Position numbers and translations under genes: made by a program. This document shows positions 17,031-64,000 of a DNA stretch of 64,000 nucleotides, piece after piece. This DNA comes from Octopus vulgaris (Eukaryota): assembly GCA_951406725.2 (NCBI GenBank), contig OX597842.1, positions 17,298,001-17,362,000 on the forward strand, written 5' to 3'. The notes beneath the pieces are model-generated. The model did not search any database and had not been told where the DNA came from. It saw only the letters and a list, made by a program, of their open reading frames with translations. The first letter of the stretch is position 1. Every line of letters starts with the position of its first letter.

Positions 17031-17929
17031 CGACGCTCACGTGTTAAGAGAATATTAAGAATGAATAATTATAAAAGCTGATTGATTTAAAATAAGTTAC
17101 AAGTTCAAACAAGAAATATCCGGTGACTCTTTGAAACGTTGAGACATAAACCAAATAAATAATTTTATTCAACTTTTGGCACAAGGCCAGCAATTTCAGT
17201 GGGGGTTTAAGTCGATTACATCGATACTAGTGTTCAAGTGGTGCTTATTTTATCGACCCCGATAAGATAAAAGATAAAGCTGACCGTGAGGTAATTTGAA
17301 TTCAGAACGTGTAGGCAGATGTAATGCCGCTGACAATTTTGCACGTGCGCGGCAACGATTCAGACAGCACGTCGCTTTACAAAAGGGAAATATTGATAAC
17401 TAGCTTCTGTTTGTGAAAAGAAAACTAGAGGTTAATCAACAGATAATATTGATTGATTTGTTATAAGTAAATATTTTTTTAATTTTCTCAAAAGGTAATA
17501 TAGTATGAATATTTTACGCGCTTAAATAACCATAGTTTACATAAGTAAAAAGAAGACAGACGTATACTTATATATTCATTTATACACACACACACATACA
17601 CATACACACACATATATCTTGTACTCTTGTACTTGTTTCAGTCGATGTCAAATCTGGCATTAACAGTGAATATAATCTTGGCCAAATCCGAACTCACAAC
17701 GCTGGATTACACTAAATATTGAAAGAATTTTGTTTCCTAATTCAAAGGGGAATTCGTAGCATTCATTCCTTTCTAGGGGAACATTATCAACGTTTACTTT
17801 AAATCGAAATACAATCCAAAGCATGGCTTCATTTCAATAAGATTTGGATTCTCGTCCTGTACTCATTGACCACAGTTTTTTCGAGGGCATTAAGTGTAAT
17901 TTATCTAGTGCATAAATAAAAATTTAAAG

Positions 17930-20040: not shown

Positions 20041-20210
20041 CTGTGTGGTGACTAGCTTGCTTACCTACCACATGGTTCCGGGTTCAGTCCCACTGCATGG
20101 CACCTTGGGCAAGTATCTTCTACTATAGCCTCGAGCCGACCAAAGCCTCGTGAGTGGATTTGGTAGAAGAAAACTGAAAGAAACCCGTCGTATATATGTA
20201 TATATATATA

Positions 20211-20251
<41 letters not shown>

Positions 20252-20993: not shown

Positions 20994-21033
<40 letters not shown>

Positions 21034-22830: not shown

Positions 22831-22838
22831 TATAAATA
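22831..22838 (+). promoter_or_regulatory. Candidate TATA box of gene A
   Basis: TATAAATA, conserved with its downstream context in the paralogous copy at 55912-55919; preceded by a conserved GCTATCGATATATTG motif. Confidence 0.5.
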
Positions 22839-23326: not shown

Positions 23327-23339
23327 ATGTACCTTAAAG
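23327..23339 (+). CDS. Gene A coding exon 1 (MYLKG)
   Basis: ATG TAC CTT AAA G|GTAAGT joins in frame to GA ATG GAA of exon 2. The ATG, CTN AAA G and donor are conserved in 4 copies. Confidence 0.65.
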
Positions 23340-23409
23340 GTAAGTGAATTAATGATATTAAGAATGAAAAGAGAGATAATTACTAAATTTGTTTTCATAA
23401 TTCTATGAT

Positions 23410-24350
23410 ATGCTTACGATTCTAGCAGCTCTTGATAAACTTTCTTCACTATTTCCTATAAAGGAGTCTATGTCTACTCGAGCAAACTGCACGCAGCCTT
23501 CTGCTTATATTAACCCTCTTTCGTACTTTCTAGGTATGTATAATCTTGCTATTCTTGCCCTTGGGTCGAGTCCTCCATTCATATTGAATTCCTTCCTAGT
23601 TCTTCTGTCTACCTTTGCTAATTCAGTTATCCCCAATCTACAAATGCTGCTGAGTATCTAAGTAATGATACGACCCGAGTATTTACGGCCTTCGCTAGAT
23701 TCGAACCATTTACTTTGATTTCATTAGCTTCCTCACCCTTCTGATGTACTCCTTCTCAATATTCGTTTTCATTTCTGTAGATAGTACTCTGGCAGATTCT
23801 AATACGTCTAGATACTTATAACTCTCTCCTCCTTTCTATGATTTTTATGTCTGGCCATCTGTTAAATGGATGCCTTCGCTGTTGACAACCTTTCTCCTTC
23901 TCATGGCTAATATTACACAAGGCGGCGAGCTGGCAGAAACGTTATAGCACGTCGGGCGAAATGCGTAGCCGTATTTCGTCTGCCGTTACGTTCTGAGTTC
24001 AAATTCCGCCGAGGTCGACTTTGCCTTTCATCCTTTCGGAGTTGATAAATTAAGTACCAGTTTTGCACTGGGGTCATTGTAATCGACTTAATCCGTTTGT
24101 CTGTCCTTGTTTGTCTCCTCTGTGTTTAGCCCCTTGTGGGTAGTAAAGAAATATAATATTGCACACATATCTACGCCAAATTCCATGGCTGTATCTTTGC
24201 TGAAGAGTCTTACAGTCTGTATTAAGGAATCAATCTCTTTTTCATTCGTAGTAAAAAATGCTTCAGATCATCCTTGTAGAGCAAATGGTTAACTGTTCCC
24301 TTACTATTTCTCAAATTATACTCTGCCTTTGCTTTTCTTAATACTAAACT
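23410..24350 (-). mobile_element. R4/Dong-like LINE RT fragment, interrupted by a family A SINE (23921-24150)
   Basis: The minus strand reads NHLLYKDDLK..EIDSLIQTVRLFSKDTAMEFG. Confidence 0.75.
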
Positions 24351-24605
24351 GAGGAAGTGGGTAGCGACATTTCTTCCGGCTCTACGTTAGGAGTTCAAAC
24401 CCCGCTGAGGTCGTAGGCGACCCGTACACCAGGTACATTCACACAGTTTATTCTGTATAAAGCCACGGTCTGGTGGTTAGAGCAGCGGACTCGCGGTCGA
24501 GGGATCGCGGGTTCGAATCTCAGACAAATAGAGAAAGAGACAGAGAGAGATAAATAGACAGAAACGAATGTATGCTGTATACTTGTATGCTTGGATATTT
24601 TTCAG

Positions 24606-24935
24606 GAATGGAAACATCAATTCAATGTCATTTGATTCTCCTGTTGCTGCCAGCTTTGACGCTTGTAGTTTTCGTGACTCCGACGACTGGAGAGTCAGCG
24701 AACAGAAATGGTTTATTCAGAAAAATCTCTTCTTCAAAATGCATAAGTGACCAGAGAATAACAACTGCAAAAACGGTGTCTGCAATAGAATGTTCGAGTT
24801 GGTGCATGTCACAAGACGAATGCCAGTATTTTAGCTATTGTAAAGGTACATGTCATATACATGGATTGTGGTACGACAAAGAAATCGAAGATTATGATTG
24901 CAACTGTTCATTGTATATTTCGTTCCCAGAAAACG
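24606..24935 (+). CDS. Gene A exon 2: signal peptide plus PAN/Apple domain
   Basis: METSIQCHLILLLLPALTLVVFVT; ECSSWCMSQDECQYFSYCKGTC is the PAN signature; TTTTCAG acceptor, G|GTATGT donor. Confidence 0.9.
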
Positions 24936-25457
24936 GTATGTAAATCAGCATTTTCTTGCATAATGTTCTGATTTTGATATATTTTAATCAATAAGAGGGC
25001 GACGGGCTGGCAGAATCGTCAGCACGCCGGGCGAAATGCGTAGCCGTATTTCGTCTGCCGTTACGTTCTGAGTTCAAATTCCCCTGAGGTCGACATTGCC
25101 TTTCATCCTTTCGGGGTCAATAAATTAATTACCAGTTACGCACTGGGGTCGATATAATCGACTTAATCCATTTGTCTGTCCTTGTTTGTCCTCTCCGGAA
25201 AGTGAATACTTTACGGCTGTTTTCAATGATGAGTTTTTAAAATTTATTCTGCGACAGACTGACAGTTGTTCTAGCATTTGTACAAAATGAAAGTGAAAGT
25301 AAGTGTAAATATTACCCTGAGAAACAAAAGGGACATTTTTTCGTTTTTTACCAGTTTGTCCAACACATTCATGTAACTCGTTCCTGCCATTTAAGGGCTA
25401 ACATCTTGTCTATACATTTAAATCTAAATTGTTGATTTCTATTTATTGCTGATTCAG

Positions 25458-38560: not shown

Positions 38561-38667
38561 AACCGCCATCATCTTCCTGAAAAATAACGTAATTTTCATT
38601 ATTTCCACTTTCTCTTTTCGCTATTATCCTATCCCCGTTAACAAACTCGATGAGGAAGTTCGGGTAA
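38561..38667 (-). CDS. Gene B exon 5
   Basis: YPNFLIEFVNGDRIIAKRESGNNENYVIFQEDDGG. Confidence 0.85.
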
Positions 38668-39497: not shown

Positions 39498-40052
39498 ACT
39501 CTTTTACTCTTTTACTTGTTTCAGTCATTTGACTGTGGCCATGCTGGAGCATCGCCTTTAGTCGAGCAAATCGAGCCCAGGACTTATTCTATCAGTTTCT
39601 TTTGCCGAACCGCTAAGTTATGGGGATGTAAACACACCAGCATCAGTTGTCAAGCGTTGTTGGGGGGACAAACACAGACACACATATATATGCATATATA
39701 CAACAGGCTTCTTCCAGTTTTCGTCCATCAAATTCACTCACAAGCCTTTGGTTAGCCTCAGGCTATAGTAGAAGACTCTTGCCCAAGGTGCCACGCAGTG
39801 GGACCGAACCCGGAACAATGTGGTTGGTAAGCAAGCTACTTACCACACAGCCACTCCTGCACCTATATATATATATATATATATATATATACGATGGGCT
39901 TCTTTCGGTTTCTGTCTATCAAATCCACTCACAAGGCTTTGGTCGGCCCTGGGCTATAGTAGAAGACACTTGCAAAAGGTGCCACGCAGAGAGACTGAAC
40001 CCGGAACCATGTGGTTGGTAAGCAAGCTACTTACCACACAGCCACTCCTGCA

Positions 40053-40087
<35 letters not shown>

Positions 40088-40622
40088 GATGGGCTTCTTT
40101 CGGTTTCCGTCTACCAAATCCACTCACAAGGCTTTGGTCGACCCTGGGCTATAGTAGAAGACACTTGCAAAAGGTGCTACGCAGAGAGACTGAACCCGGA
40201 ACCATGTGGTTGGTAAGCAAGCTACTTACCACACAGCCACTCCTGCACCTATATATATATATATATATATACGATGGTCTTCTTTCGGTTTCCGTCTACA
40301 AAATCCACTCACAAGCCTTTGGTCGGCCCTAGGCTATAGTAGAAGAATCTTGCCCAAGGTGCCACGCAGTGAGACTGAACCCGGAACCATGTGGTTGGTA
40401 AGCAAGCTACTTACCACAAAGCCACTCCTGCACATATATATATATATATATATACATATATAAACGATGGGCTTCTTTCGGTTTCCGTCTACCAAATCCA
40501 CTCACAAGGCTTTGGTCGGCGCTAGGCTATAGTAGAAGACACTTGCCCAAGGTGCCACGCAGTGAGACGAAATCCGGAACCATGTAGTTGGTAAGCAAGC
40601 TACTTACCACAAAGCCACTCCT
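39496..40622 (-). mobile_element. Family B SINE with five tandem head units separated by (TA)n
   Basis: CCACTCCTGCACCTATATA junction is repeated; single tail at 39496-39690. Confidence 0.85.
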
Positions 40623-40727
40623 ATCTGTATACTTTCCTCTTATATATACACCGTGAAAGTGTTTAAAAGAGCTATTATGGAACAATTAGTCGTAGGTGTT
40701 AATTATGTGTAAGAAAATCGTTTATAC

Positions 40728-40870
40728 TTCTCATGCAGAGTTAATTTATGTACGTTCCAATTCGATGGCTGAACAAGGATTTTATCTTTCTGGGACCATG
40801 ATGTAGAATTCGTCCCTGTTCCATTGAAAGTTAACGTACTAAAATATGTTTTTCGTAACTGAACTCGAAC
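40728..40870 (-). CDS. Gene B exon 4
   Basis: VRVQLRKTYFSTLTFNGTGTNSTSWSQKDKILVQPSNWNVHKLTLHE. Confidence 0.85.
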
Positions 40871-42258
40871 CTGGAAATAGAATGTAAACTCGGAGTTGTA
40901 ATGAATCTGAGAGTGAGGGAGGACTGAGTAGTAGGAAGAGAAAGGAGACTAGGATGTGATGTAAGGAGAGAGTAGGAGGGCGAGAATGAGATGGAGAGAA
41001 TAATGGGGGAGGGAATGAGACATTGGGTGCAGGAGAATAAGGACCGGAGAATACAGAAAATAGGAGGAAGAGAAGGGGAGGGAGAGAGAGACAGACAGAC
41101 AGAGAGAAGGAAGGAAAATGAGAAGACGAAATGCTATGTCGCGTTAAATGTGCAAAATTAAGACAGAAAGTGATTGGGTTTGAGAGGAAAACGTGGCTGA
41201 CTTACGAGACAGAGAATCAGACTACTAACTAATGAGTCATGATTTCGGAGTCTTTCTAAAAGTTTTGTTGCATCTATAGGAACTAGAAAACCCTGACAAA
41301 ATCAGGATAATACAAAAACAAAAACAGCAAGAATCGATCCCACATCAAAGACATATCGATGTTCTGTGGAGGAATCAAGGGAGATATCAGGAACGGAAGT
41401 AAAGGAGTTGTGACATCACCTCAAGAAAGGGGCTTTTGATCTGCCTCTTCCTTGGTCAAGACTCTTAGGTGGAGAGGATGCCAGAGGGACAGTAGCTTCT
41501 GACCAAATGCTGGGGTAGTGTATAGGTTTGTCCAACAAGTTCTTTTGACTCTGGTAGAGTGTAGCTTTTCTGTAGTTCGTCTCGAATTAAAAGCATTTTT
41601 ACTGTCCCATCTACAAATTCGTGAATTTCATCCTTCCACCTCTTCCTTTAAAATGCAAGACAAATATTTTTCCTCGCTGACACAGAACCTTCTCATAATC
41701 TCTCCCCTTCTTTCTCCACCTCATGTCTACTCAACCCTATATTCCTACACTTATAACAACTCACCATTCTTATTTCGATCTTAGCAGTTAAAACTCTTTG
41801 CTATTCTACTTCAAAATATTTATTCCTCATTGATCCAATTCAGGTGTTAATTCATCGCTTTCCAAACTCCTCCTTAAACCCCCTTTTCTTCTTAGTTATA
41901 ATGCTCATAATCCCTTTTAACCTTCGGGCTCTTCTTACACCAAAGCACCGATGATGAGATTGAACCATTCCACATTCTGATCCATTTGTACCAGTCTCTT
42001 TCGTAACCTTGAAGTATTCCTCTTAAACACACTGATTCAATATCGAGACACTCTCGGTTATGTTGCTGTCTATGAAATCCCGCGTCTCTACGATCTGATG
42101 ACGTTTGTCACATTATGCTATCGTTCCTTGAAGGATGAAAGGCAAAGTCGACTTCGGCGGAAATTGAACTCGGAAAATAAAGATCCGGAATTAAATACTA
42201 CAAGCATTGTGTTCTACGTTCTAATTATTCCGATTCTTTTATAATAATAATAATAATG

Positions 42259-42576
42259 AGAAGAAGAAGAAGAAGAAGAAGAAGAAGAAGAAGAAGAAGA
42301 AGAAGAAGAAGAAGAAGAAGAAGAAGAAGAAGGAGAAGAAGAAGAAGAATTGGAAGAAGAAGAAGAAGAAGAAGAAGAAGAAGAAGAAGAAGAAGAAGAA
42401 GAATTGGAAGAAGAAGAAGAAGAAGAAGAATTGGAAGAAGAAGAAGAAGAAGAAGAAGAAGAAGAAGAAGAAGAAGAAGAAGAAAAGAAGAAGAAGAAGA
42501 AGAAGAAGAAGAAGAAGATGAATGAAGAAGAAGAAGAAGAAGAAGAAGAAGAAGAAGAAGAAGAAGAAGAAGAAGA
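42259..42576. repeat. (GAA)n tract
   Basis: Read directly. Confidence 0.95.
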
Positions 42577-42599
42577 GAGGATCGCTGTGCAAAGGATGA

Positions 42600-43325
42600 C
42601 TGCCTGCAGCAAGGTCGCACCCCTGCATGGATGTCAAGCGAGCGAACGCTGCTAATGTGTCAAGGACCCCTTGAAAGGGAACTTGCAAACATCAGGTAAG
42701 TAACAATCTATTACCTAAAGAACAGAAAGGATGCAGGAACCAAAGTAGGGCAACAAAAGATCACCTATTAGATGATAAAATGATAATTAGAAATTGCAGA
42801 GGTAGATGATTGGCAGGAGTGAATGTAGCATGGTTAGATTAGAAAAAAGCGTATGACATGGTACCACACAGTTAGACAAGTAAAACAAGGAGCAGGTTTG
42901 AAATAGCAAAAAAAAAAGCATGGAGAAAGTGCTAAATGAAAGTATGGAACATTGGAATACTGAAATGATCGGAGAAAAACAAAAACCTGGAAAGGTGAAC
43001 ATCAGACGTGGAATATTTCAAGGTGATAGCTTATCTCCGTTACTATTCGAATTGGCCATGAAAAGTGAAAATTGCTTACGATTTGGTTAAAGGAAATGGT
43101 CAGATAAATCATCTCCTTTTCATGGACCATACAAAAGTTTATGCGAAAAATGAGAAACAGTTTGAAAATCTTGTAAATATTATCCGAATTTTCTCAAATG
43201 ACGTTGCTATGGAATTTGGGATAGAAAAGTGCGCTATATTGAAAGTAAAACGAGGAACATTTGAAAGAAGCCAGGGAATTGAAATGCCAAATGGGCAAAC
43301 AATGGGAGCAGTTGAGAAGGCCGGA
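42600..43325 (+). mobile_element. R4/Dong-like LINE RT fragment
   Basis: [49 protein letters not shown]. Confidence 0.8.
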
Positions 43326-43678
43326 CCTTAGTCCCCAAATCTCGCTAGTGAAACAGAAAAAAAAAGGAGAAATAAATACGAGAGGAATAGGTTTCTATGC
43401 GTCGTGTATATTTTATAGCAACACTCTTGCCACAAAATGAAAACGCTGCACAATATTCCATTGAAATTTCGAAGGAAAATTAGTTTGGATCTAGTTCTAT
43501 CGTGAAACCCCGCCAAAGAAACTTGCTAACACAAAAAGATAGATTTTAAAATGAAACAAACATCAGAAACTGAAATTAAACGTTTAAAAGAAAACACTAG
43601 TAATTATTGTAAAACAGCAACAAATATGTAGATTGGTTATTCAATGAGAATCATCTCGAAATTCTAAAAATTCATTAC

Positions 43679-43770
43679 CTTTTCAATAGGCATGTCTTCC
43701 CAGTACAAATAAATAGGGCTTTTCTTAAATGAGTTTGGGGTCATCTCAAATACTTTCTGCCAGCTTTTAC
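43679..43770 (-). CDS. Gene B exon 3
   Basis: KSWQKVFEMTPNSFKKSPIYLYWEDMPIEK. Confidence 0.85.
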
Positions 43771-44329
43771 CTAAGTATACAAACAAGATGTTAACCCTTA
43801 AACGGCGGAAAAGTTTTGCAGGAATGTCTGTGACAAACGGACAATAATCGAAAAAATCTCTTTTTCATACGGCTAATTTTTATATTTATTTTCATTAAAT
43901 TAAGCACAAAAACTAAAATAATTGTTTGTCTTAAACAAATGGAGAAGGATCGGTGCACTTTTTCCATCCAGAGCTAGTTAAAGCATTATTTATTTTTTTT
44001 CTATTATCTAAAATATCGTTTTCAACATCATCTGATTCATTTGATGATGAAAGAAAATCAGAAAAACACTTCATCATCGCTGTTTAAATCATCTATTTAC
44101 GACTGGATTTCTCCCATTGATAAGGGCCGCTTACGCTTAGGCGCATTTAATTTAGAAGACGCTCGGGCCTCGACTGATGACGATCATATCTGTGTAAACT
44201 TTTTGTGACACCAATAGGATTTGAAAGAAAAAGGAGGTGCATTCTAGAAGTTTCGAGGATTTTTCAGGAAAGACATTTATTTATTTCAAAGAAAGCTGAG
44301 TGAACCGGTCCGATTCCTTGTTCGACATC

Positions 44330-44995
44330 TCGCTCAGGATTGTGTTTGGTGTAAAGCACATTTCTAAGGATATGTAAAGTGATTAACTCGTTCCAGTGGT
44401 GTGCCCGAAATTATTATGTTAAAGTCCAGAAGGGCAGATTTCGGGATTGATTAGGGGAAGAACTGAGATTTCTTAGAATTTACAGTGAGCTCAAAACGTT
44501 GATACGCAATGGTGAAATAACTGACAGATTTTTGCAGTTCTAAGCTTGAGTGACCGAATGACCACGTTGCCATCGACGAAGTGAAGTTCTGAGATTCGCT
44601 TGGAACTGGAAAGATTCTTTGACCGAAACCTCACCAAGCTGAAGAGTCTTTCATCAAAACGATATCTGATGTCCTTTCCCAGCTGATCCGAGGCAAGTTT
44701 ATAGATCATTGCAGCAAGGTATAAGGAGAAAAGCATAGTAGCGGGTACGCAAACTTGTTTCAATCCAGATGTAATTGGGAATTCTTCTGAGAGTCCATCA
44801 CGAGAAAGGAAACGCCCAGTCATGCCATCGTATGATCAGAGAGAAGACGAAATTGATCAAGGGCCGTCCATATGGCTGGTCTTGGTACTCTATCAAAAAC
44901 CTTTTGCAGATCATAAAGATAAGGAAAATGCGGTTTTGTTGTTGTCGATACTTGTTTTGGAATTGTCTGACGCAGATCGTGTCTACGTATGAGTA
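44330..44995 (-). mobile_element. RTE-like LINE RT fragment
   Basis: DLQKVFDRVPR..FPITSGLKQVCVPATMLF..ISELHFVD. Confidence 0.7.
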
Positions 44996-45010
44996 TAGCT
45001 TCCTTAATTC

Positions 45011-45240
45011 TTAAATTACCCACATTTCTTTCACTGGCTCAATTGTGACTGTTATGCTTTTGTCGGTGTTCCGGCATCTGTCTAGATGTTTTCTGAAGGA
45101 GGTGGCTCTCGTGTTAAGATGTTCTATGATGCGGACGTGTAACGGTTTTGTTGTGCTACCAACATAGAGCTTATTGCATTTGTTACATTGTATTCTATAC
45201 ACAACATTTACCCGTTGACATGAATCTATGTCACGGATGG
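45011..45240 (-). mobile_element. Penelope GIY-YIG fragment
   Basis: CQRVNVVYRIQCNKCNKLYVGSTTKPLHVRIIEH. Confidence 0.8.
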
Positions 45241-45646
45241 GACGGTTTGTTAGTTTGCATTGATTGTTGTCCCTTGTTCGTTTCTTTGCGAGCATACATA
45301 CATAAAACATACAAATCTGCGCATAGATACATACATACATAACATACATACAAACTTACAAACAAAAATACCCTGTCGTTGATGTTGCAATTCCAGTGAA
45401 GGAGCCTTGATTTAGGTTAGAAACCGGTTCGTTCTCTATTCGCAAGAAATCCTGAAATAAACTGAATAACAATAAACATACATAGCCGCAGGAGTGGCTG
45501 TGTGGTAAGTAGCTTGCTTACACACCACATGGTTCCGGGTTCAGTCCCACTGCGTGGCACCTTGGGTAAGCGTTTTCTACTATAACCTCGGTCCGACCAA
45601 AGCCTTGTGTGTGGATTTGGTAGATGGAAACTGAAAGAAGCCCGTC

Positions 45647-45704
<58 letters not shown>

Positions 45705-45717
45705 GTGTATGTATATA

Positions 45718-45772
<55 letters not shown>

Positions 45773-46044
45773 ATGTTTGTGTGTTTTTGTTCGTCCCCCT
45801 AACATCACTCGACAACCGATACTGGTGTGTTTATGTCACCCGTAACTTAGGAGTTCGGCAAAAGAGCCCGATAGAATAAGTACTAGGCTTACAAAGAATA
45901 AGTCCTGTGATCGATTTGCTCGACTAAAGGCGGTGCTCCAGCATGGCCACAGTCAAATGACCGAAACAAATAATAGAATGATAGAATGCCTATATACATA
46001 AATGTGTGTGTGTGCGTGTGTGTGTGCGTGTGTGTGTGCGTGTG

Positions 46045-46137
<93 letters not shown>

Positions 46138-46216
46138 TTGTAAAACAATTGGGATAATGGTGAAAATATATTACTGAAATTAGAAAAAATATGCCAGAAA
46201 ATTGTGATTTACATAC

Positions 46217-46549
46217 TGTTTCCGGAGAGTAAAATATACGATAAACATGTGCAATCCTGATCTTTAATTTCTTCGTTGTAAAGCGATCGATGCATATAAC
46301 ACGGGCCATTACAATAGCTAAAATATTGGCACTCATCGCGTGAAAGACACAGACTTGCACATTCCATACGAGATGACGCGGTTTTTGTAGTTTTATTCTG
46401 ATCAATTAAGCATTTTGATGTCGTGGTTTTTTTGAAGAGACCTTCTCTATTCGTTGGTTCTCCGGCAGTTACAAGAGTCACGAAAAGCAAAAGTGTCAAA
46501 GCTGGTAGCAGAAGAGGAATCGAATGGTACTGAATTGTTGTCTCCATTC
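46217..46549 (-). CDS. Gene B exon 2: signal peptide plus PAN/Apple domain
   Basis: METTIQYHSIPLLLPALTLLLFVTL; ECASLCLSRDECQYFSYCNGPC; all mature-domain cysteines match gene A. Confidence 0.9.
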
Positions 46550-47732
46550 CTGAAAAATATATTTTATATATTTTGTAAATTATATTAATTATTTTTATAT
46601 TTTGGTTTATGTTTTTCACTGTTTGATTTGCCTAATAGTGGTTTTATCTCTAATATAATTTAATATATATATGTATATATATACACATATATATTCTCTC
46701 TTTTACTCGTTTACTTGTTTCGTTCATTTGACTCCCTTTAGTCGAGCAAATCGATCCCGGGATCTATTCTCTGTAAGCCCAGAACTTATTCTATCGATCT
46801 CTTTTGCCGAACCGCAAAGTTGCGGGGACATACACACACACGCATCGGTTGTCAAAAAATACTAGGGGGGCAAACACAGACACACGCACACACATACATA
46901 TACATATATAGACATATATACGCCAGGCTTCTTTCAGTTTCCGTCTACCAAATCCACTCAGAAGGCATTGGTCGGCTCGGGGTTATAGCAGAAGACACTT
47001 GCCCAGGTGCAACGTAGTGGGCCTGAACCCAGAACCATGTGGTTGGTTAGCAAGCTAATTACCACAGAGCCACTCCTGCGCCTATATATATACATTTATA
47101 CATATACATACATATATACATATGTATATATATAGAGAGAGAGAGGGTGAGAGACATACAGACATACAGACAAAAATATACACACACAACAGACAACACA
47201 CACATATATATAGGCGTAGGAGTGGCTGTGTGGTAAGTAGCTTGTTTACCAACCACATATATGCGTTTGTGTGTTTGTGTGTCTGTGTTTGTCCCCCTAG
47301 CATTGCTTGACAACCGATGCTGGTGTGTTTACGTCTCCGTCACTTAGCAGTTTGGCAAAGAGACCGATAGAATAAGTACTGGGCTTACAAAAGTATAAGT
47401 CCCGGTGTCGAGTTGCTCGATTAAAGGCGGTGCTCCAGCATGGCCGCAGTCATACGACTGAAACAAGTAAAAGAGTAAAAGAGTATATACAACCATCTGG
47501 AATATGTGTATGTGGTTTTATTTCAAATATATTATCGCAAATATTAGAGGTGTGGGTTCGAGTCCCATGCGTACGGAAAAAAACTTACTTTTTTCCGTCG
47601 TGGTCTTATATGCCCCAGAATTAGACAATTTTCTTTAATCGATACACGGTGATCGTCCATAAGCTTTTTAAGCTTATAAATATATTCATTATTATTTGCA
47701 GAATTGTCACTCGTCGCCGCTTTTCTATTTAA

Positions 47733-47774
<42 letters not shown>

Positions 47775-48180
47775 TTAGATAAAACTTAGATATGTTTCGA
47801 CCAAAGATTGGTTCAGGTCATGTCTAACTTAATAGCATCACCTGATAGGATTATCTAAATCCTGTGTAAGTCAAGTTTTGTTTATGGTCCATTCAAGTAG
47901 TGAGTTTTTGTTGGGTGAGTTGTATCCAATTATGGGTGCCTTATCTGGTATTCCTTGAAGGAATCTTTTCAGACTCCGTTTAAAGTTGATGGGATCCGTT
48001 TACTCTTTGATCTCTTTCGGAACAATGTTAAATAGGGCAGGGCCTGTTGAGGAAAAGAAATTATGTTGCAGTGTACATGTATGCTGTGATCTTGAATTGG
48101 GCAGGGGACGTATGGTCCGTGGTCCCAATCTTGGATGAACCTTGAAGCTAATATATATATATATATACACATATATATGT

Positions 48181-48212
<32 letters not shown>

Positions 48213-48996
48213 GTGTGTGTGTGTAAATATGAATGCAGAGGCTGAATAAAGATGGATTGTTTGTGACTTCGGTCGAAAAAGGCGAACCGTTAACCGTCTC
48301 TATTCTATCTTCTGTTTAGTAATAAAATAATAAACAAGTCTTTACTAATTATTTTTCCTTGATATAAACTGATTTATTACAAAATTTAATTAAAAACCTA
48401 TCTTTGGGATGGTATGGTTCATGAAGTAGTTTTGTTTCAATAATTAAAAGCTAATTAGTTTATCATCCGGAAAAAATAGTCATTTAAGCGTGTAAAATCA
48501 TTATGTGACAATGGCGGTTTAGAAGAAATGATATAAGCTTATGATAAATCAATCAGCATTAATTATCTATTGATTAGTCTTTCGTTTATGCTTCGGAATG
48601 AGCAACAAGAAGTCATTGTGAATACTACCATTTTATTAGCTCAAATGTAATCGATCAGTTTATACCGAAACTCCTCAAAAAACTTTCTCGGACATTTCTT
48701 GTTTGGACTTGTTATTTTTTGAAGTCCATCAGTTTTCTTCTTTCATTTATTCCCCGTTTGTTTATTAAATAATCTTTACTTTTGCTTTTATCAATGATCC
48801 GTGTTATGTGTTCTATTATTGATCGCTGGACGATAGGTGCTCTTTTATCGTGTGTACATGTAGATATATATTTATTTGGACTTTTTGGTATATGTTTAGT
48901 AGTTTGCCGATTAAAGCACTTTCACCGTTTAGGCTGTCTGATGTCATCACAGATCTACATCAGGAATTCTGTAGTGTTCTTTGAATTTATTACGGA

Positions 48997-49421
48997 GGAT
49001 CATTTCGGTTTGAACGGCAGTTTTTCTAGCGGTGTCATATGAAATTGTCACCCATAATTATGACCCTAGTATCGATCTATTGCATTTCAATCTGTTTTAG
49101 GGTTAGGGTTAGTTAGGGTTAGGGGTGAGGGAAAGGTATCTCTGTTTCTTCACAAATGTAAATAAACCCAATCTGTTTCTTAAACGAGGGAAATATTCAT
49201 ACGGCTCACACTACTTTTTAACTCAATAGACGTCACTGATTGGATGAAATTGCAGAAATTGAAGAAAAAAACAACAAATATCTTACAAACAATAGAATTT
49301 TCTCAATAAAGCCAAGAGAAAAAGATGTTTTATAAACACATTCTACCAGTATACGAAGTTTAAATGTGCTTAGTTACGTGGAAATTATTTTAAAAAACTG
49401 CCGTTCAAACAGAAAAGATTC
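48997..49421 (+). mobile_element. TTAGGG-containing MITE in gene B intron 1
   Basis: Same TIRs as 14090-14516; lies 20 nt from the exon 1 donor. Confidence 0.85.
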
Positions 49422-49441
49422 AATATCATTAATTCACTTAC

Positions 49442-49454
49442 CTTTAAGAATCAT
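49442..49454 (-). CDS. Gene B coding exon 1 (MILKG)
   Basis: ATG ATT CTT AAA G|GTAAGTGAATTAATGATATT, in frame with exon 2; TATA-like CATAAAAATA at ~49912-49903. Confidence 0.65.
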
Positions 49455-50403
49455 GATTGGTGCTGATTTTCCAAGAAAATTTAAATTTTAGTTGAGATTT
49501 AAATAATTTTTTTTGCTTTTTCGTTTTTCCAGTTTTCGATAAACGTGGTCAAATTGTATTTTCTTAAATCCTGGATCTGACAGTTGAATAATAAAATTCG
49601 GAAATTTTCACAGATTTTGTGAAACTAGTTGATTTCTTTTTATACCGGCTTCGAAAATGATGTGTTGTTAAAAGAATGTCCTCAAACTTATTGAAGTTTG
49701 AATTCGCTTTTCTTTCAACTCTTGAAATTGTCGCCAAGTTATTTAAATTTATCTGAAACAAATTCTTCAATTTGATGTCTGGCTTCTTTGTCACTTTTGT
49801 TTGCACTGCTTTTATATCAAAGATTCCAGTCTAGTCATCAGCTTTGCTACTTCCTCATCTCTCAAACAACATTCACAAATAAACCAATCAAATCTAGCCA
49901 CATATTTTTATGCATGTGGTTAACAAAAGTACTTTCAGATATTATAATATATCGATAGATTTCTATTTGATTGATTTTCTTTTAAACTTCATAGATGCTT
50001 TTTTGTTTTACTCAGTGCTGTCGGAAGAGGTGTGGTACAGCCACATACAGTAAGACGTCAAGTTATTGATAAAATGAAGGCGTAACATTTTCTGCATTCT
50101 GGGATGAAGTCACTGCTGCTAATAATCTCCAGTATTCGGACATTGTTAAAATAAAAATAATAAATGCGCCCTTTTAAAGCCTAACCAGGATCATGGGCCC
50201 GGTTTCCCGGTTTCAATGGCGTATGTGTTCCCCAGCTGGACGGGGTGCCAGTCCTTCGCAGCGTTACACATTTTTGCCAGCTGAGTGGAAATGAAGTAGT
50301 TTGCTCAAGAACACAACGCGTCACCCGGTCTAAGAATCGAAACCACAATCTTACGATCATGATGCTGATACCCTAACCACTAAGCCACGCGCCTCCACAC
50401 ACA

Positions 50404-50603
50404 CAAATATTTTTACTTTCGACACATGTTTCGAAAATTCCACTGATACTACTCAAAAGAATAAATGGTATAAAACAATGCAATCTTCTCTTTAGGAAAG
50501 TGAAAAAACGAAACTCAGAGAAGATTGCTTTGTATATACAATTTATTCTTTTGAATAGTATCAGTGGAATTTTCGAAACATGTGTCGAAAGTAAAAATAT
50601 TTG
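50404..50603. repeat. 200-bp palindrome (~87-bp arms, 25-nt spacer), MITE-like
   Basis: 50404-50491 is the reverse complement of 50517-50603 with few mismatches. Confidence 0.85.
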
Positions 50604-50786
50604 ATTTACACCTGCGTTAAACTCCATTTATTTATTTTTATATTATACAAAAAATTCCACGTAAACACGAAGTTTCTACCTTTATAAACAAGGAGTTACA
50701 ACCTCTTTACTTGTGAGATTTTTTGCTTCCCTGGTAACTATTTATTTATTTTTTCCGTTTTAATTGTTAACAAGGTAAAAATACAC

Positions 50787-50843
<57 letters not shown>

Positions 50844-51409
50844 ATATATATATATATATATATATACATGCATATATACAAAGGATATAAGACCACCTTT
50901 CGTCCGACGATCAATAATAAAACACTTAAGACGGATCATCGACAAATTCACAAGTAAAGGTTATTTAATAAGCAAACTAAAGATAAAACTCGTGGATTCA
51001 AAAGAAATAACAAGTCCAAACAAGAAATGTCCGAGAAAGTTTTTTGAGACGTTTCGCTATAAACTGATCGATTAATTTTGAGCTAATAAAATGGTAGTAT
51101 TCACAATGACTTCTGGTTGCTCATTCCGAAGCATAAACGAAAGACTAATCAATAGATAATTAATGCTGATTGATTTATCATAAGCTTATATCATTTCTTC
51201 TAAACCGCCATTGTCACATAATGATTTTACACGCTTAAATGACTAATTTTTCCGGATGATCAGCTAATTAGCTTTTAATTATTGAAACAAAACTACTTCA
51301 TGAACCATACCATCCCAAAGATAGGTTTTTAATTAAATTTTGTAATAAAACAGTTTATATCAAGGAAAAATAATTAGTAAAGACTTGTTTATTATTTTAT
51401 TACTACACA

Positions 51410-51645
51410 GAAGAGAATTAATGCATTCGAGCTTTGGTGTTGGAGAAGACTTTTACGGATTCCATGGACAGCGAGGTTCACCAATGGAGAAGTTCTTTAG
51501 CAGATCAGGCCGAAACTCTCGCTAGAAGCTAGGATCACCAAGCATAGATTGGCATATTTTGGTCATATTGTGCGGAGAAAATACCTGGAGAAGGACATGC
51601 TCGGAATGGTCAGTGGCAAGAGAAGAAGAGGTCGACCAAGAACCA
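51410..51645 (+). mobile_element. RTE (BovB-like) LINE fragment
   Basis: RINAFELWCWRRLLRIPWTARFTNGEVL..YFGHIVRR. Confidence 0.8.
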
Positions 51646-51825
51646 CTACGTCATATGCCCGTGAGAAATAACGGAGTGAATTTCAGGGGTTATAAATCTA
51701 ATATTTTTCTATCCTTCCTTAATACTAGTTCCCATATGCTACTCATATCTGCACTCGGTCTGCTAAGGAGGTTGTTGTGCGTGGATTTGGTAGACGGAAA
51801 CTGAAAGAAACCCGTTGTAAATATG

Positions 51826-51899
<74 letters not shown>

Positions 51900-52039
51900 A
51901 CTCTCCAACATCGCTTGACAACCGATGCTGGTGTGTTTACGTCCCCCTAACTTAGCGGTTCGGCAAAAGAGACCGATAGAATAAGTACTAGGCTTACAGA
52001 GAATAAGTCCTGGGGTCGATTTGCTCCTCGCCTAAAGGC

Positions 52040-55904: not shown

Positions 55905-56720
55905 GCAGGCATATAAATACAGGCGTTTTGTTTGTAGTGGTTTATTTGCAAAGATCGATGGAGAGAAGCGGTAATTGATTGAAAAAACTGACAAATCTGT
56001 GGGTGAAACATAATTTACTTGTAATCTTACAAGCAAAGTATTTTGAAAAGTAAGACACCACAATACAAGACACTAAGTTTAGGAACGTGCTTAAGAAAAA
56101 GTGAAATAACCTGACGACAGCTCCTGGAATTCGAGGGAACGAAAGTTCAAGTTGTACATCTATCTTAATAAGAGAGTAAAAAATCTGAAGATATTGTTTT
56201 AAGGACATATCATCTTCTTGAAGCTTGAACTGTGAAATATCCTAAGTTTATTCTTAAATTGTCGGAACGAAGAGAATAGAAAGGAATAAAAGAAATCCTT
56301 TTTATTGAAATTAGAAAACAAAATATTAAAAGGCAGAAGACCCCGAGTTTAAGAACGTGTTTAAGAAAAAGTAAAATAACCTGGCGACAGCTTCTGGAGT
56401 TAGAAGGAAAGAAAGTTTTAAGTTGCACACGTATCTTTATAAAGGTGGAAAAGATCTGGTGAGATTACTTTAAGGGCTTATCATCTTCTCGAAGCCAATA
56501 CAAAAAGAAATCAACTGTGAAATATCCTGAATTTATTCTTAAATTATCAGAACGAAGAGAACAGAAATAAATAAAAGAAATCCTGTTTATTGGAACTAGA
56601 AAAAAGAAACACTAAAAGGCAGACGATTCTGATTCCAGTGGGACCCGTCCGGTTGGTCGATTTTGCAACTAAAAGGGAAGGTTTACTTAACAAACTCTGT
56701 AACAGTCATGAACCTGAAAG
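55905..56720 (+). other. Promoter plus first exon (ATG 56708, MNLKG) of a probable third paralog with no body in the window
   Basis: TATAAATA at 55912; homologous to 22830-23339 and 18100-18501; donor AG|GTAAGT. Confidence 0.65.
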
Positions 56721-56752: not shown

Positions 56753-57355
56753 GGCGGCGAGCTGGCAGAATCGTTAGCACACCGGGCGAAATGCTTAGCG
56801 GTATTTCGTCTGCCGTTACATTCTGAGTTCAAACTTCGCCGAGGTCGACTTTGCCTTTCATCCTTTCGGGGTCGATAAATTAAGTACCAGTTACGCACTG
56901 GAGTCGATATAATCGACTTAATCCCTTTGTCTGTCCTTGTTTGTCCCCTCTGTGTTTAGCCCCTTGTGCGTGTAAAGAAATAGGTATTTCGTCTGCCGCA
57001 ACGTTCTGAGTTCAAATTCCGCCGAGGTCGACTTTGCCTTTCATCCTTTCGGGGTCGATAAATTAATTACCATTTACGCACTGGGGTAGATGTAATCGAC
57101 TTAATCCCTTTGTCTGTCCTTGTTTGTCCTCTCTGTGTTTAGCCCCTTGTGGGTAGTAAAGAAATAGGTATTTCGTCTGCCGCTACGTTCTGAGTTCAAA
57201 TTCCGCCGAGGTCGACTTGGTCTTTCATCCTTTCGGGGTCGATTAAATAAGTACCAGTTACGTACTGGAGTCGATATAATCGACTTAATCCGTTTGTCTG
57301 TCCTTGTTTGTCCCTTCTGTGTTTAGCCCCTTGTCGGTAGTAAAGAAATAGGTAC
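56753..57355 (+). mobile_element. Family A SINE trimer with a single 12-bp TSD
   Basis: TAAGAATGAAAA at 56740-56751 and 57356-57367. Confidence 0.9.
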
Positions 57356-57481
57356 TAAGAATGAAAAGAGAGATAATTACTAAAATTGTGGATTTGGAGA
57401 AATCTTGGATCGACTGATAAAATAACTTTAGTTTTCAGTCGCGTACCTTTACACTTTCATTTCGAAAGCAGAGTTTGCCGT

Positions 57482-57891
57482 GGATCTTTTAGGTTTGAAC
57501 GGCAGTTTTTTAATATAATTTCCACGTAACTAAACACTTTTAAACTTCGTATACTGGTAGAATGTGTTTATAAAATATCTTTTTCCCTTGGCTTTATTGA
57601 GAAAATTCTATAGTTTGTAAGATATTTGTTGTTGTTTTCTTCAATGTCTGCAATTTCAACCAATCAATGACGTCCATTGAGGTAAAAGAAACATTCTGTG
57701 CCGTATGAAAATGTCCCTCGTTTAAGAAACAGATTGGGTTTCTTTACATTTCTGAAGAAAAAAGATACCCTTCCCCTAACCCTAACTCTAAAGCAGATTG
57801 AAATGCAATAGATCGATTCTATGGTCATAATTATGGGTGACAATTTCATATGACACCGCTAGAAAAACTGCCGTTCAAACCGAAAAGATCC
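57482..57891 (-). mobile_element. MITE with 8-bp TSD
   Basis: TTTGCCGT at 57474-57481 and 57892-57899. Confidence 0.9.
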
Positions 57892-58653
57892 TTTGCCGTT
57901 CATTAGTGTCTCTTATGTGTCTTATGTCAATAACAGAAATCGTTATTAGACAGAACAGAGAATGCGAGAATCAGTGAATCTCTCTCTCGAACTAAAATAC
58001 CATCATTTAGTCTTTACTCGACTTTCCCTTACCGTATTTAACGAAATGACTGAAATAAAATGCTCAAATAATATCCAGGAGATGAATCCGATGGATTGTA
58101 TATTTTTTACTTAAGAAAAATCTTGAATTTCTACACATGTAAGAAATTGTTATTTCTTGTAGTTGAGTAATATTTAAGAATCTTGTAGTTAGGATGTCTA
58201 GTTTTTAATAAGGCAGTCTGGGTTCGATTCCAGGCATTGGAAAGGCGCTATTTTTTATGTGCAGGCGTGGCTGTGTGGTAAGAAGTTTGCTTCCTAACCA
58301 TATGGTTCCGGGTTCAGTCTTACTGCGTGGCACTTTGGGGCAAGTGTCTTCAAAAAGCCCGCAGACGACTAAAGCCTCGAGTTGATTTGGCAGACAGAAT
58401 CTGAAACAGGAGACCTGTCGTCTACACAGACAGACATACAGACAGACACACACACACACATACACACACACACACAAGTACACATGCACATATATACGAG
58501 GGGGTGCTGAAAAGCTCCTGGCTTTAAGGGTGTCGCGAAAGGCCTGGCTAGAGGCCCACCCTTTTGAGTTCTTTTACAGGGCTTAGAAAAACTGAAGGAC
58601 TGCCGCACTAAGTTTTTTGAATCTAAGAGGGGAATATATTAAATAAAGCCATA

Positions 58654-58757
<104 letters not shown>

Positions 58758-58775
58758 AGGGAGGATAGATAGATA

Positions 58776-58824
<49 letters not shown>

Positions 58825-59767
58825 GGCGGAGGAACTCTTGAGAGTCAACGTCCATCCAATAAATGTCTTAAGGCTGTATCATGCGCGGGGACATAGAAAT
58901 AATCGGACTGAATACCCGATTGCGCGGTTAAACCATTGGGAGTGAAGGACACTCCTAGCCTTTGTTAGGGTATCCTTCGAGGAGAAGGTAACTCAGGTAA
59001 CTGGGATAACTCCGACATAAAACCTGCGGCTCAGTGGTTACTGATGATGTTGACTTTTTCTTCTTATCGGATTATGGCTGCTGTTGCTTAGTGAGTGGGA
59101 TTGACTCAGTGCACAGCCTTTCCTCACTTCAAACAAAAATCTTCTTGCACAGGCATTGCACGATAACAACATTGATTAAGCTTCGTGCAATGCCCATACT
59201 CGATAACGAGGGGGCAGCCACCATATATATATATATATATTAGAAGGTTTGGAGATGATGTACAGGTATTTTATATTAGAAGAAATGAGGTACTCAGAAA
59301 ATCGGATGGTTTATATTTACAGATATTTATTTGTATATTACATTTTTTATACATCATATAACTTATAACATGTATTAGCGCTTTCTCCCATTCTAGTGGG
59401 GTTTTCAAATGAAACTCGTTATTTAAATCGTTATTAATTTAAATTAACGATCTTATATATATATATAAGATCGTTAATTTAAATTAAATAACGATCTTAT
59501 CAAGTGGCCAGCATGGAAATAAAAACCTTCAAACATAATAATTATTATATTAAAATTGTAATTTAGGGTATCTACGAGATACCGCCATGCTGAAAATAGT
59601 AGCCAGGATCTGACTCTAAAACCACCTTAAGTGATCATATAGCAACACGAAGAGAAGAGAAAAAGACAAAATAAAACTACTGTCCCTGTGCTATATGAAC
59701 ACCTAATGTGGTTTTATAGTCAGATCCTGGCTATTTTCTGCATGGCGGTTCTCGTAGATACCCTAAG

Positions 59768-60086
<319 letters not shown>

Positions 60087-60284
60087 GCTAACAGTCGTCA
60101 ACCAAGAATCACTACTGTTGCTCCCATCGGAACACGAGGTAAAATCTATAATGAACTCCTGCACTACAGTAAGGAACGACTTACACCTTGTAATATATTT
60201 TTTACCTTTTCAAGAACATGGATTCTATTGAATGTATGAAACAATTATGAACTATTCCATTATACTCTTTATTATAAAAAATTC

Positions 60285-60327
60285 TTTTTGATAAGGTTCG
60301 TTATTTCAAGAACCGAAACATGTAAAA
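60285..60327 (+). ncRNA. Hammerhead-like motif with U3-A8 core
   Basis: TTT-TTGATAA-GGTTC..GAACC-GAAA-CATG-TA-AAA; weak stem I. Confidence 0.5.
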
Positions 60328-60371
60328 ATTAAAATTTATCTAATATAGTGGCATTTTCAAACTTCTTTTTT

Positions 60372-60447
<76 letters not shown>

Positions 60448-60478
60448 CATATATATATATACATATATATATACATAA

Positions 60479-60525
<47 letters not shown>

Positions 60526-60672
60526 AAATAGAAAGATGAATAATCTTGTAGTAGATTAATCAAAAGTTTAACCGATACCTTAGTAGCAAAAATCACAGCA
60601 GTAAAACAGCACGGTTGGAGGTACAACCATATGGTGTTGCAACCGTGCGTTGGTGCGGATAATTGAAATTAG

Positions 60673-60999
60673 AACATTATTGGTGAATTGAAGAAATGGA
60701 GCTGAACGCAGATTGAACAGAAATCGTTTTATTTCATTTTACACGTGTTTCGAAAGGCACAAATTCCAAAATCCGATGGAATAATGGGACCATATTGTGT
60801 CTTTCTCTTCAGGAAGAAAATAGGAAATCCGTTGGAAAACGGATTTCCAACGGATTTCTATTTTCTTCCTGAAGAGAAAGACACAATATGGTCCCATTAT
60901 TCCATCGGATTTTGGTAATTTGTGCCTTTCGAAACACGTGTAGAATAAATAAAACGATTCAATCTGCGTTCATCCATTTCTTCATTCACCAATAATGTT
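60673..60999. repeat. ~327-bp palindrome carrying two divergently oriented hammerheads
   Basis: Arms meet at a 5-nt loop (60839-60843). Plus-strand motif at 60866-60945: TTC-CTGAAGA-GAAAGaCACAA..TTGTGcCTTTC-GAAA-CACGTG-TA-GAA. Mirror copy at ~60738-60816. Confidence 0.85.
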
Positions 61000-61019
61000 A
61001 TATATATATATATATATGT

Positions 61020-61107
<88 letters not shown>

Positions 61108-61132
61108 ATACTATATATATATATATATATGT

Positions 61133-61232
<100 letters not shown>

Positions 61233-61237
61233 CATAC

Positions 61238-61269
<32 letters not shown>

Positions 61270-61271
<2 letters not shown>

Positions 61272-62278
61272 AAGGTAGAAAAGTCGAAAGAAGTAAATTG
61301 GTGGGGTTATGCGGTGCAGGCTTTGGTTCACATAACCATGCCAGACCTGTATAACATCCCAGAGGAGTTGGTGTTCCCCGACGAGACACGTCTCAGAATC
61401 GTGGTGGAGGGGAGACCCCCAGTGTGTTACAGATGCAAAATTAGATGCCACATGAAGGATATGTGTCCGCTAAGAGAAGTACAAGAGAAAACGATAACAC
61501 TGGAGGCTTTGACAGAGGAGTTACAGAAGGCGAATGTAGAAGAGGAAATCGTGACTACAGATAATGTGGAAAGTGGTGACTAGATGGTGAAGGAGAAAGA
61601 AAAGGAAAGAACAGAAGAAAAAGAGGATAGAAAGAGAATGCGGGTGGAATCACCAACCAAAGCACAAAAAAAAAAAAGAAAAAAGCTAAAAGGAGGTCTA
61701 CCGACAAGATAGAGAATTGAACGCACGAAGAGAAAGATACAGAAACGAAAGTGAGTGAAGTTTCAAATTGTCAGGTAACGGAAGAATGGGATAGAAGGGT
61801 GGAAGAACAGCTGAATATATGTAAGGAAGGAGGAAAACCAAAAGGAAGAAATCTTAAAGCTATAATATTGTACAAGAAGGACAAGGAAATTGAGAAAAAG
61901 TTGGCAAATATGAAAAGTTTAACTAGAGTGAAGTTGAACCCGAAGATATTTGGTGACCAAGTGAAGGCGGCGATTGTAGAAAGAGACAGTAACGAAACTG
62001 AAAAATGTGTATACAGCTGTATGTCTAATGCATTACATACGGTATGACAGTTTGCCAGGTATTACAGAACAGGAGAAGTTACTCGAGTACATTACAGATG
62101 AACGCCCTGAATAACATAATTGTAATTGTAAATGAAACTGCGAGCCATTCCATTTAATTCATTACAAATAATTCATTGTCATACCATCCTTTTTGATTTT
62201 TTTTTATTATATGTACCCCATGTCCTGTATTGTTAAGTCCCCTCTTAATTCGGGCCATTGTGCCTATAATAAAGATTT
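61270..62278 (+). mobile_element. Decayed LINE ORF1-like (gag zinc knuckle) element
   Basis: [23 protein letters not shown] fits CX2CX4HX4C; K/E-rich tail; ends near AATAAA. Confidence 0.65.
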
Positions 62279-62295
62279 AAGCGACGCCTGCTGGG

Positions 62296-62339
62296 TCTGG
62301 CATTGATAAAGGGCAAATACCCTGAAACATGTCTACAGA
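62296..62339 (+). ncRNA. Hammerhead-like motif with U3-A8 core
   Basis: TCTGgcA-TTGATAA-AGGGcaaataCCCT-GAAA-CATG-TC-TACAGA; GUC site, imperfect stem I. Confidence 0.55.
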
Positions 62340-62816
62340 TGTCTGGCCAGCAAGGGGAAGCGGATGACCTCCCCTGTTCGAAGATTATAATGGACACAGG
62401 TTCGTGTGTCATATAGCTCGATAGAGGCGATGGCCTCTTGGAGCTAATCAACGGCAGCTTTAGTCTTATATTTATGGACTGCCATATTAGCTTGGCGATA
62501 ACTGTTAATAATACGCAAATTTATATATATTTTCATATATGCAGTAGTTAAAATCTTGCGAGAAGTAGGGAGGGGTTATTTTTGTTCAGTTACGTAATCT
62601 AATTGGTCATCAATTGTTTTGAATGGCTTTGCCTCAGTTATGATTGGTTAATTGATAACCGATATTTTAATAATTACTAGTATCTTTATATATTATATAT
62701 GTAAAGCATTCTATGTTATACATGTATATATATTGTTGTTATTGTCATTTTAGTAAATAAATAAATTGTCTATAAGTTGATGAATACTGCCTATTGATCC
62801 CCTCCATTTTCTTTTG

Positions 62817-62906
<90 letters not shown>

Positions 62907-63137
62907 TAAATATATATGTTCATAAGTGTATATATATATATATACATATATATATTAGAAAGTTTGGAGATGATATACAGGTATTTTATATTAGAAGAAA
63001 TGAGGTACTCAGAAATTCGGATGGTTTTATATTTACAGATATTTATTTGTATATTACATGTTTTTATACATCATATAACTTATATCATATATATATTAGC
63101 GGTTTCGTCCTTTCTGGTAGATTTTTCAAATTGCGTC

Positions 63138-64000
63138 CAGGGTTGGACAAATAATGGCTACACCATAAATTTCAAACAAATTAATTTTAATATGTGGTAG
63201 GACCGTCTTTGGCAGTAATTAAAGCTTGAATTCTACGAGGTATGGACTTGTACAAAGTTTGAATTGTTTCCAAAGGAATTTTTATCCATTTTTCACCTAA
63301 AACAGTCTCCAGTTCTTGTAGTGATGATGGTGGAGGATATCGACTCCGTACTTGTTTTTCTAAAATGCTCCATAAATGTTCAATAATATTGAGATCTGGG
63401 GGACTGTGGTGGCCAGATAACATGTTCAACTTCACTAGAATATTCCTCGTGCCATTCAGTAATAACTTTAGCAGTGTGAGTTGGTGCATTATCATCTTGA
63501 AAGATTGCGTTTCCCTCCGGAAACAGTTCCGCAAACACAGGATGAATTTGATCAAATAAAATGCTTAAATGGTCTTGACTATTAATTCTGCCATGAAGGG
63601 AAACCATTGGGCTGGTAGATTTCCAAGATGTAGTTCCCCAGATCGTCACAGATCTTCCTCCATGTTTAACAGTTGGAAGAAGGTAGTCTGGGTCAGATGC
63701 TTCTTTTGGCTGTCTCCACATGTATACTAGGCCGGTGGTCGGAGATAAGGTAAAGAATGACTCGTCCGAGAAAATAACATGTTTTCATTGCTCTAGGGAC
63801 CATTTCTGTAGGTTTTTACACAACTCTAAACGCTTTGCAATATTTGTTTTTGAAAGTGGTGGTTTTCAGATTGCAGCCCTCCCGTGAAATACGGCCTTGT
63901 GCAGCTCCCGGCAAACAGTTTTTGTGGAAACTGGGTTCTCAAGGTAGTCGTTAAGCTCTGCAGCAATTTTCGGAACTGTACTTTTGTGATCCTTTCTAAC
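63138..64000 (-). mobile_element. Tc1 transposon, frameshifted DDE transposase, runs off the window
   Basis: VIFSDES..PTVKHGG..FQDDNAPTH..SPDLNIIEHLW; TIR-like CAGGGTTGGACAAATAATGG at 63138. Confidence 0.9.

Follow-up and report, generated by a model that had tools for sequence, protein, structure and literature searches.

Within a stretch of 64,000 nucleotides of the Octopus vulgaris genome (G000:C29:17298001-17362000, in the following called the window), the predicted promoter and the first exon of a gene are enclosed by two long inverted repeats. This arrangement raises the question whether recombination between the arms can turn the promoter away from its gene, as the initial annotation had proposed, or whether the inverted repeat has another origin. 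Coordinates given without a prefix are window positions. All structural evidence comes from one assembly. The surrounding region C29:16.93-18.10 Mb was analysed as a whole; its 1.17 Mb contain 200 N, none of which fall in the window or in the regions A, B and C described below.

The inverted arms and the gene they enclose

The basic geometry was confirmed: inverted arms of ~0.5 kb bracket ~2 kb that hold a TATA-like box, an ATG and a splice donor (Table 1). Left and right arm align with 90.5% identity over 576 columns (E=0). The description of near-identical outer parts of ~420 bp and more diverged inner parts was equally accurate: the outer 413 nt of the arms are 97% complementary, at a distance of 2281 nt from each other, whereas the inner part of ~145 bp reaches ~81% identity, with 27 of 142 positions in 48706-48860 differing in addition to a 12-bp indel. 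The longest perfect tract shared by the two arms measures 130 bp. No direct duplication of 4-12 bp, as expected of a target-site duplication, was found at the outer arm ends. The outer end of the right arm adjoins an unrelated repeat fragment that we take to be LINE-like; this outer flank had no Pfam match. A search with Rfam over 47500-52000 returned 13 matches, all of them far under the gathering scores and located on microsatellite or hairpin repeats, and none in the arms. Roughly 0.9 kb of the enclosed spacer consists of ordinary repeats, namely a MITE, a hairpin element and a further repeat which is presumably SINE-like.

Table 1. Position, strand and description of the features discussed in the text (window positions unless prefixed).
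Feature	Position	Strand	Description
Diverged arm copy	17073..17533	-	nhmmer E 1e-14; 1.2 kb upstream of first exon 18449-18521, the usual place in the family
Exon 5	38561..38667	-	37-65% aa identity with paralogs
Left arm of large inverted duplication	40622..49399	+	partner C29:17362722-17374208, past the window end; 90-97% by block
Exon 4	40728..40870	-	strongly diverged between paralogs
Exon 3	43679..43770	-	window gene
Exon 2	46217..46549	-	signal-peptide-like stretch and PAN/apple-like domain below Pfam cut-off; second in-frame ATG 46547
Left arm, type L	48308..48875	+	copy of family-wide conserved non-coding element, inside intron 1 of X-type gene body
MITE E	48997..49422	+	426 bp, terminal inverted repeats; X-intron flank left, Y-intron flank right
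Exon 1a and predicted promoter	49442..49816	-	TATAAAAG 49816-49809, ATG 49454, donor GTAAGT 49441
SINE-like repeat (presumed)	50160-50400		spacer
Hairpin repeat, 200 bp	50404..50603	.	18 matches of at least 80 bp in the 1.17-Mb cluster
Right arm, type R	50852..51414	-	second copy of family-wide element; 1.7 kb upstream of exon 1a
Exon 1b and promoter	56400..56720	+	usual X-type first exon, ATG 56708; head to head with exon 1a
Intact E copy	57481..57891	-	perfect 8-bp target duplication

The window gene was traced to exon 5. Exons 1-5 have canonical GT/AG ends and together comprise 229 codons with no stop; exon 1, whose promoter is predicted from the TATA box and the donor, encodes the peptide MILKG and joins exon 2 in frame. 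Against Pfam PAN_1 exon 2 scores 16.5-19.4 bits (cut-off 21.4), and its nearest neighbours in the Atlas (0.95 and 0.93) are mollusc clusters, 42-48% of whose members carry PAN_1. We found one longer homologue of exon 2, an uncharacterised protein listed under Octopus sinensis with 96% identity. Contigs from five of eight runs guessed to be RNA lie on exon 2, some of them extending into introns; none reaches the arms or the unique part of exon 1a, and among the rows examined none joins exon 1 to exon 2. These contigs are uninformative on expression either way. On the opposite side of the spacer exon 1b feeds a second gene body with its exon 2 at C29:17368023, and the right arm is located ~5.6 kb upstream of this exon in the orientation usual for the family.

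Close to the left arm we noticed a non-repeat stretch (47500-47735) that is 93-99% conserved in the four genes bearing an L-type arm and contains a minus-strand GTAAGT ~1 kb from the arm. It matches these four genes only and no exon-1 type, and is possibly a remnant or an alternative first exon.

The arm as an element of a gene cluster

A protein search with exon 2 gave 65 matches, most of them within C29 16.9-18.5 Mb or C8 78.1-78.9 Mb. In the cluster at C29:16.93-18.10 Mb we counted 32 exon-2 starts and 53 exon-1 donors, which occur on either strand; 20 bodies are close to that of the window gene (X-type, exon 2 at least 90% identical). Compared with this value among X types, exon 4 is ~70-80% identical between paralogs in nucleotides (full-length matches) and exon 5 37-65% in amino acids, which makes the C-terminal part of the family (exons 4 and 5) a candidate for diversifying selection. 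In three X genes the ATG of exon 1 is changed to AAG (C29:18054115-18054163, 17935672-17935744, 17859918-17859990); here translation could begin from the in-frame ATG that opens exon 2. Some genes are preceded by tandem cassettes of promoter and exon 1, up to 7 ahead of a single exon 2 (C29:17070890-17099537, 17387844-17409291 and window 18449-24940), and such arrays may provide several alternative promoters per gene. Dispersed repeats of 184, 312 and 195 bp form head-to-tail arrays at 10552-11621, 16073-17028, 39684-40622 and 56800-57354.

The arms had been thought to match nothing else in the window. This was wrong, as a diverged copy is present in the usual place ahead of another first exon (Table 1). 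The proposed search with the arm likewise showed that it is not unique to the locus: all of at least 15 matches fall in the C29 and C8 gene clusters. A profile derived from 10 copies, themselves certain to match, identified 33 arm-like loci in C29:16.93-18.10 Mb at E<1e-10; weaker matches, mostly microsatellite, were discarded. Upstream of an exon 1, and no more than 8 kb from it, 19 of the 33 loci share one orientation, 17 of them at a distance of 1.0-2.9 kb; 6 have the other orientation and 8 are farther off. The usual orientation was also present in all three C8 stretches examined. Between C29 and C8 the arm is conserved at 67-73% and the promoter itself at 67%. Because the conservation of the arm between the chromosomes resembles that of the promoter, we infer from sequence that the element may be cis-regulatory. 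Other inverted pairs of the element are located between head-to-head genes at C29:17991421-17994234 (93%) and 16963077-16978673 (96%).

Seven copies are closely related to the arms of the window gene: the left arm, the right arm and a third copy (C29:17363237-17363804) at locus A, two at locus B (18.05-18.06 Mb) and two at locus C (17.93 Mb). A 98% copy of the arm lies 1.4 kb past the window end. Along locus B an X body (minus) is followed by arm L, MITE E, exon 1b (minus), arm R, exon 1a (plus), a partial E and, ~530 bp further on, a Y-type exon 2 with 39% identity, which is single copy in the assembly. The two arms of locus B are direct repeats, both on the plus strand and 10 kb apart. Locus C has a B-like order that is cut at the inner end of arm R, and its arms are again direct, both on the minus strand. 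At the cut a truncated exon 2 of another gene type (C29:17928806-17929162) adjoins the inner end of arm R, marking a further rearrangement junction. The B-like order recurs in the right half of locus A, where 14 kb separate the right arm from the third copy, its direct repeat. An X body behind exon 1a is found solely at the left of locus A.

Sequence exchange between the arms

The uneven similarity of the arms had been taken as a trace of recent exchange between them, and this reading was borne out. Among the seven close copies, 7 sites in 48343-48616 unite the three arms of locus A against those of B and C, whereas 32 columns in 48725-48862 and one at 48316 separate L from R arms; 28 informative columns fit neither the split by locus nor that by arm type. 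Sites of the two classes occupy separate stretches (runs test, p=2e-5, 7 and 22 events), and in AU tests on the seven copies each segment rejects the tree of the other (p=4.5e-6 and 1.7e-4, i.e. below 2e-4 each way). Since the outer tree, which groups the arms by locus, conflicts with the inner tree, which groups them by arm type, the alignment supports a recent non-allelic sequence exchange over the outer ~410 bp.

Such an exchange needs no inversion, because the direct arms of loci B and C are homogenised over the matching stretch. The arms of locus B differ at 10 of 317 outer and 29 of 144 inner positions, those of locus C at 8 of 317 and 27 of 144. Within locus A the right arm differs from the inverted left arm at 6 of 318 positions and from the direct copy 14 kb off at 4 of 318. 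In all seven copies the outer flank and the inner type are in phase, i.e. the flanks of the exchanged tract are in parental phase. A single crossover between inverted arms would join the flank of an L arm to the inner end of an R arm; as this is seen in none of the seven, the assembly holds no flipped copy. Flanks in phase are also compatible with an even number of flips.

Further sites bear on the order of events and on the partners of the exchange. The two L copies of locus A share two changes missing from the right arm, a weak hint that the conversion may be older than the inverted arrangement. Site 48678 suggests the opposite: here the left arm carries the R-type allele, which fits an exchange between the inverted arms. 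In the two other inverted pairs of the cluster, the similarity between partners does not exceed that to distant paralogs (93.4 vs 94.8% and 96.0 vs 97.3%). This absence of pair-specific homogenisation indicates that locus A is somewhat special and not the rule. Furthermore, a 754-bp contig from one run (49429-50175, covering exon 1a) is a mosaic in which alleles of locus A stand beside 14 listed changes, 7 of them alleles of locus B and 7 of other kinds. The region thus varies between animals, and an exchange within the population is plausible.

The left arm is itself contained in a larger palindrome, in which arms of ~9 kb surround a 15-kb spacer holding exons 1a and 1b head to head. Mismatches between the large arms amount to 0.5-3.5% in intron 1 and exon 2, to 4-6% in introns 2-3 and to 14-25% around exon 4, the large repeat being most alike close to its centre. 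Most of the intron-1/exon-2 blocks differ by 0.5-2.2%, the MITE by 3.5%, and perfect tracts reach up to 205 bp. Around exons 4 and 5 the window gene is old and differs from its palindrome partner, so that a simple one-step duplication does not account for the whole body.

We weighed whether homologous recombination between inverted repeats occasionally re-inverts part of the locus, resulting in a germline flip-flop polymorphism. The large palindrome would be the likelier substrate and would swap promoters between bodies differing in exons 4-5; the 0.4-kb arms would be a weaker one. The small divergence and the perfect tracts of the intron-1/exon-2 blocks are in line with this idea, as are the mosaic exon-1a contig and the locus-specific homogenisation of the arms. 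Against it stand the direct arms, which are homogenised as well, and the lack of a flipped copy among the seven. In addition, the perfect tract shared by the small arms, 130 bp, is probably on the short side for homologous recombination to be efficient. In the account of the Saccharomyces flip/flop repeats, inverted paralogous repeats cluster by locus as a result of concerted evolution, as they do here, and this accompanies true re-inversion (PMC9731477). The yeast repeats of that account are 4 kb long, nearly identical and documented in both orientations, unlike the octopus arms with 0.4 kb, 97% and one known orientation (PMC9731477). Taken together we consider a flip-flop polymorphism unlikely. 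The same low expectation applies to a natural promoter-swapping cassette, in which two nearly identical gene starts would face away from the spacer with its two head-to-head promoters, recombination of the palindrome would re-invert the 15-kb spacer or the 2-kb piece, each promoter would alternately drive a different hypervariable C-terminal half, and both orientations would segregate among octopuses.

The MITE junction of the window gene

The arms are likely inverted at this locus because the window gene is a chimera. Directly seen in the sequences are the copy map, the orientations, the hybrid flanks of the MITE and the split phylogeny. The exon 1a region shares 96% identity with the Y-type gene at its 5' end (C29:18062675-18063407), and among the X-type exon-2 copies the 1b type is the nearest exon 1 in 19 of 20 (one 75 kb off), with 1a found in the window gene only. 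Homology changes from the X body to the Y 5' end inside MITE E (overlap 49275-49399), an element with 3338 first-look candidates genome-wide. Intact copies of E carry 8-bp target duplications, for which reason we take the element to be hAT-like. At the junction copy (48997-49422) 5 of the 8 target-site positions mismatch between the two flanks. A target duplication was seen in 3 of 9 parsed copies, 11 of 20 having been left unparsed by our script, and its lack at the junction is weak evidence taken alone. According to the work on the Galileo inversions of Drosophila buzzatii, a chimeric element with mismatched flanks is a signature of ectopic recombination (PMC2775673). The octopus junction element resembles the Galileo copies in that its two flanks come from different insertions, and differs from them in comprising one junction, a 426-bp MITE and a promoter-swapped gene in a cluster instead of a chromosomal inversion (PMC2775673).

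The reciprocal junction (exon 1b, E, Y body) is absent from the assembly, since there is one copy of the Y exon 2, placed behind exon 1a. This absence fits a deletion-fusion or an inverted duplication better than a plain inversion. In locus A (57481-64000 and L036) we also observed two direct E copies around 6.8 kb, where loci B and C have one hybrid E; the sequences are consistent with a deletion between two E copies at B and C.

From these observations we propose the following course of events. An old tandem duplication of a cassette consisting of exon 1 and its upstream element would have generated the arms L and R as direct repeats, a state that persists at loci B and C, and likewise for the right arm relative to C29:17363237-17363804. 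Ectopic recombination between two MITE copies, via deletion-fusion or inverted duplication, would have put the L-bearing intron beside exon 1a. The Y-type promoter and first exon would thereby have been fused to an X-type body and the arms turned to face each other. The outer parts of the arms were likely homogenised through gene conversion with no net crossover, and the enclosed 2 kb would be a passenger and not a switch. In our judgement it is very probable that a conserved upstream element was duplicated in tandem, converted, and its copies brought face to face by MITE-mediated gene fusion. The inverted repeat is real, and its cause is most likely ordinary cluster dynamics.

Alternatively, a misjoin of the assembly within this high-copy MITE could have produced both the chimera and the inverted repeat. 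In favour of such an artefact, the repeat that holds the junction has thousands of copies, there is one copy of the Y body, and neither the junction nor an arm is bridged in the short-read runs examined. These runs comprised contigs of X1 and X2 as well as 31 placed reads of X21, of whose raw reads 3 in 100 were sampled. However, the repeat measures only 426 bp in a contig of 34.6 Mb, and both sides differ from every other copy, the left body by 0.5-6% from its partner and exon 1a by 3% from locus B. Contigs free of differences moreover cover the inner part of the left arm in two runs and that of the right arm in one, one of these runs possibly being the source of the assembly. A misjoin is accordingly very unlikely.

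The phase-variable promoter of the initial annotation found no support, given that none of the seven copies is flipped, direct arms are homogenised too and the arms are a family-wide element. A programmed or somatic promoter inversion with the arms as recombination sites would draw on the geometry alone, inverted arms around TATA box, ATG and donor, and on the finding that a flipped exon 1a would face the second X body with an in-frame acceptor. This geometry occurs at one of the 20 X-type genes, and there the MITE junction accounts for it. With a length of 560 bp and 33 loci in the cluster, the arms are family elements and not short recombinase sites, and no recombinase-like ORF was noticed in 36-56 kb when ORFs were read by eye. 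The bacterial invertible promoters Hin and Fim are enzyme-mediated, use short sites and are present in both orientations. The octopus locus is similar to them in that a predicted promoter is enclosed by inverted repeats, but its arms are long family elements and one orientation is seen. We regard a programmed switch as extremely improbable. We give just as little credence to a foldback or MITE-like transposon that captured exon 1, the other origin suggested at the outset: long inverted arms do surround unrelated sequence, but the outer ends lack a 4-12 bp duplication, the at least 15 arm matches are confined to the two gene clusters, left-arm homology continues into the outer flank in one C8 paralog, and the arms are direct at loci B and C.

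The conversion also invites comparison with the palindromes of mammalian sex chromosomes, whose arms are likewise homogenised, by gene conversion from one arm to the other (PMC8981503). Compared with those palindromes (>99%), the octopus repeat is much smaller and less uniform (90-99%), and its conversion is patchy and also affects direct copies (PMC8981503). Among the titles found in the openly accessible literature, none dealt with this locus, an octopus PAN-domain cluster or an animal invertible promoter.

The product of the fusion would be an X-type protein driven by a Y-type promoter. A promoter-swapping flip-flop in an animal gene family would, if true, matter much more, as a directly testable route to expression diversity. 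On the reading preferred here, the MITE-mediated fusion, the locus provides a clean and datable case of a MITE-joined promoter swap with patchy gene conversion in a fast-evolving octopus gene cluster, and the arm is a candidate for a family-wide regulatory element.
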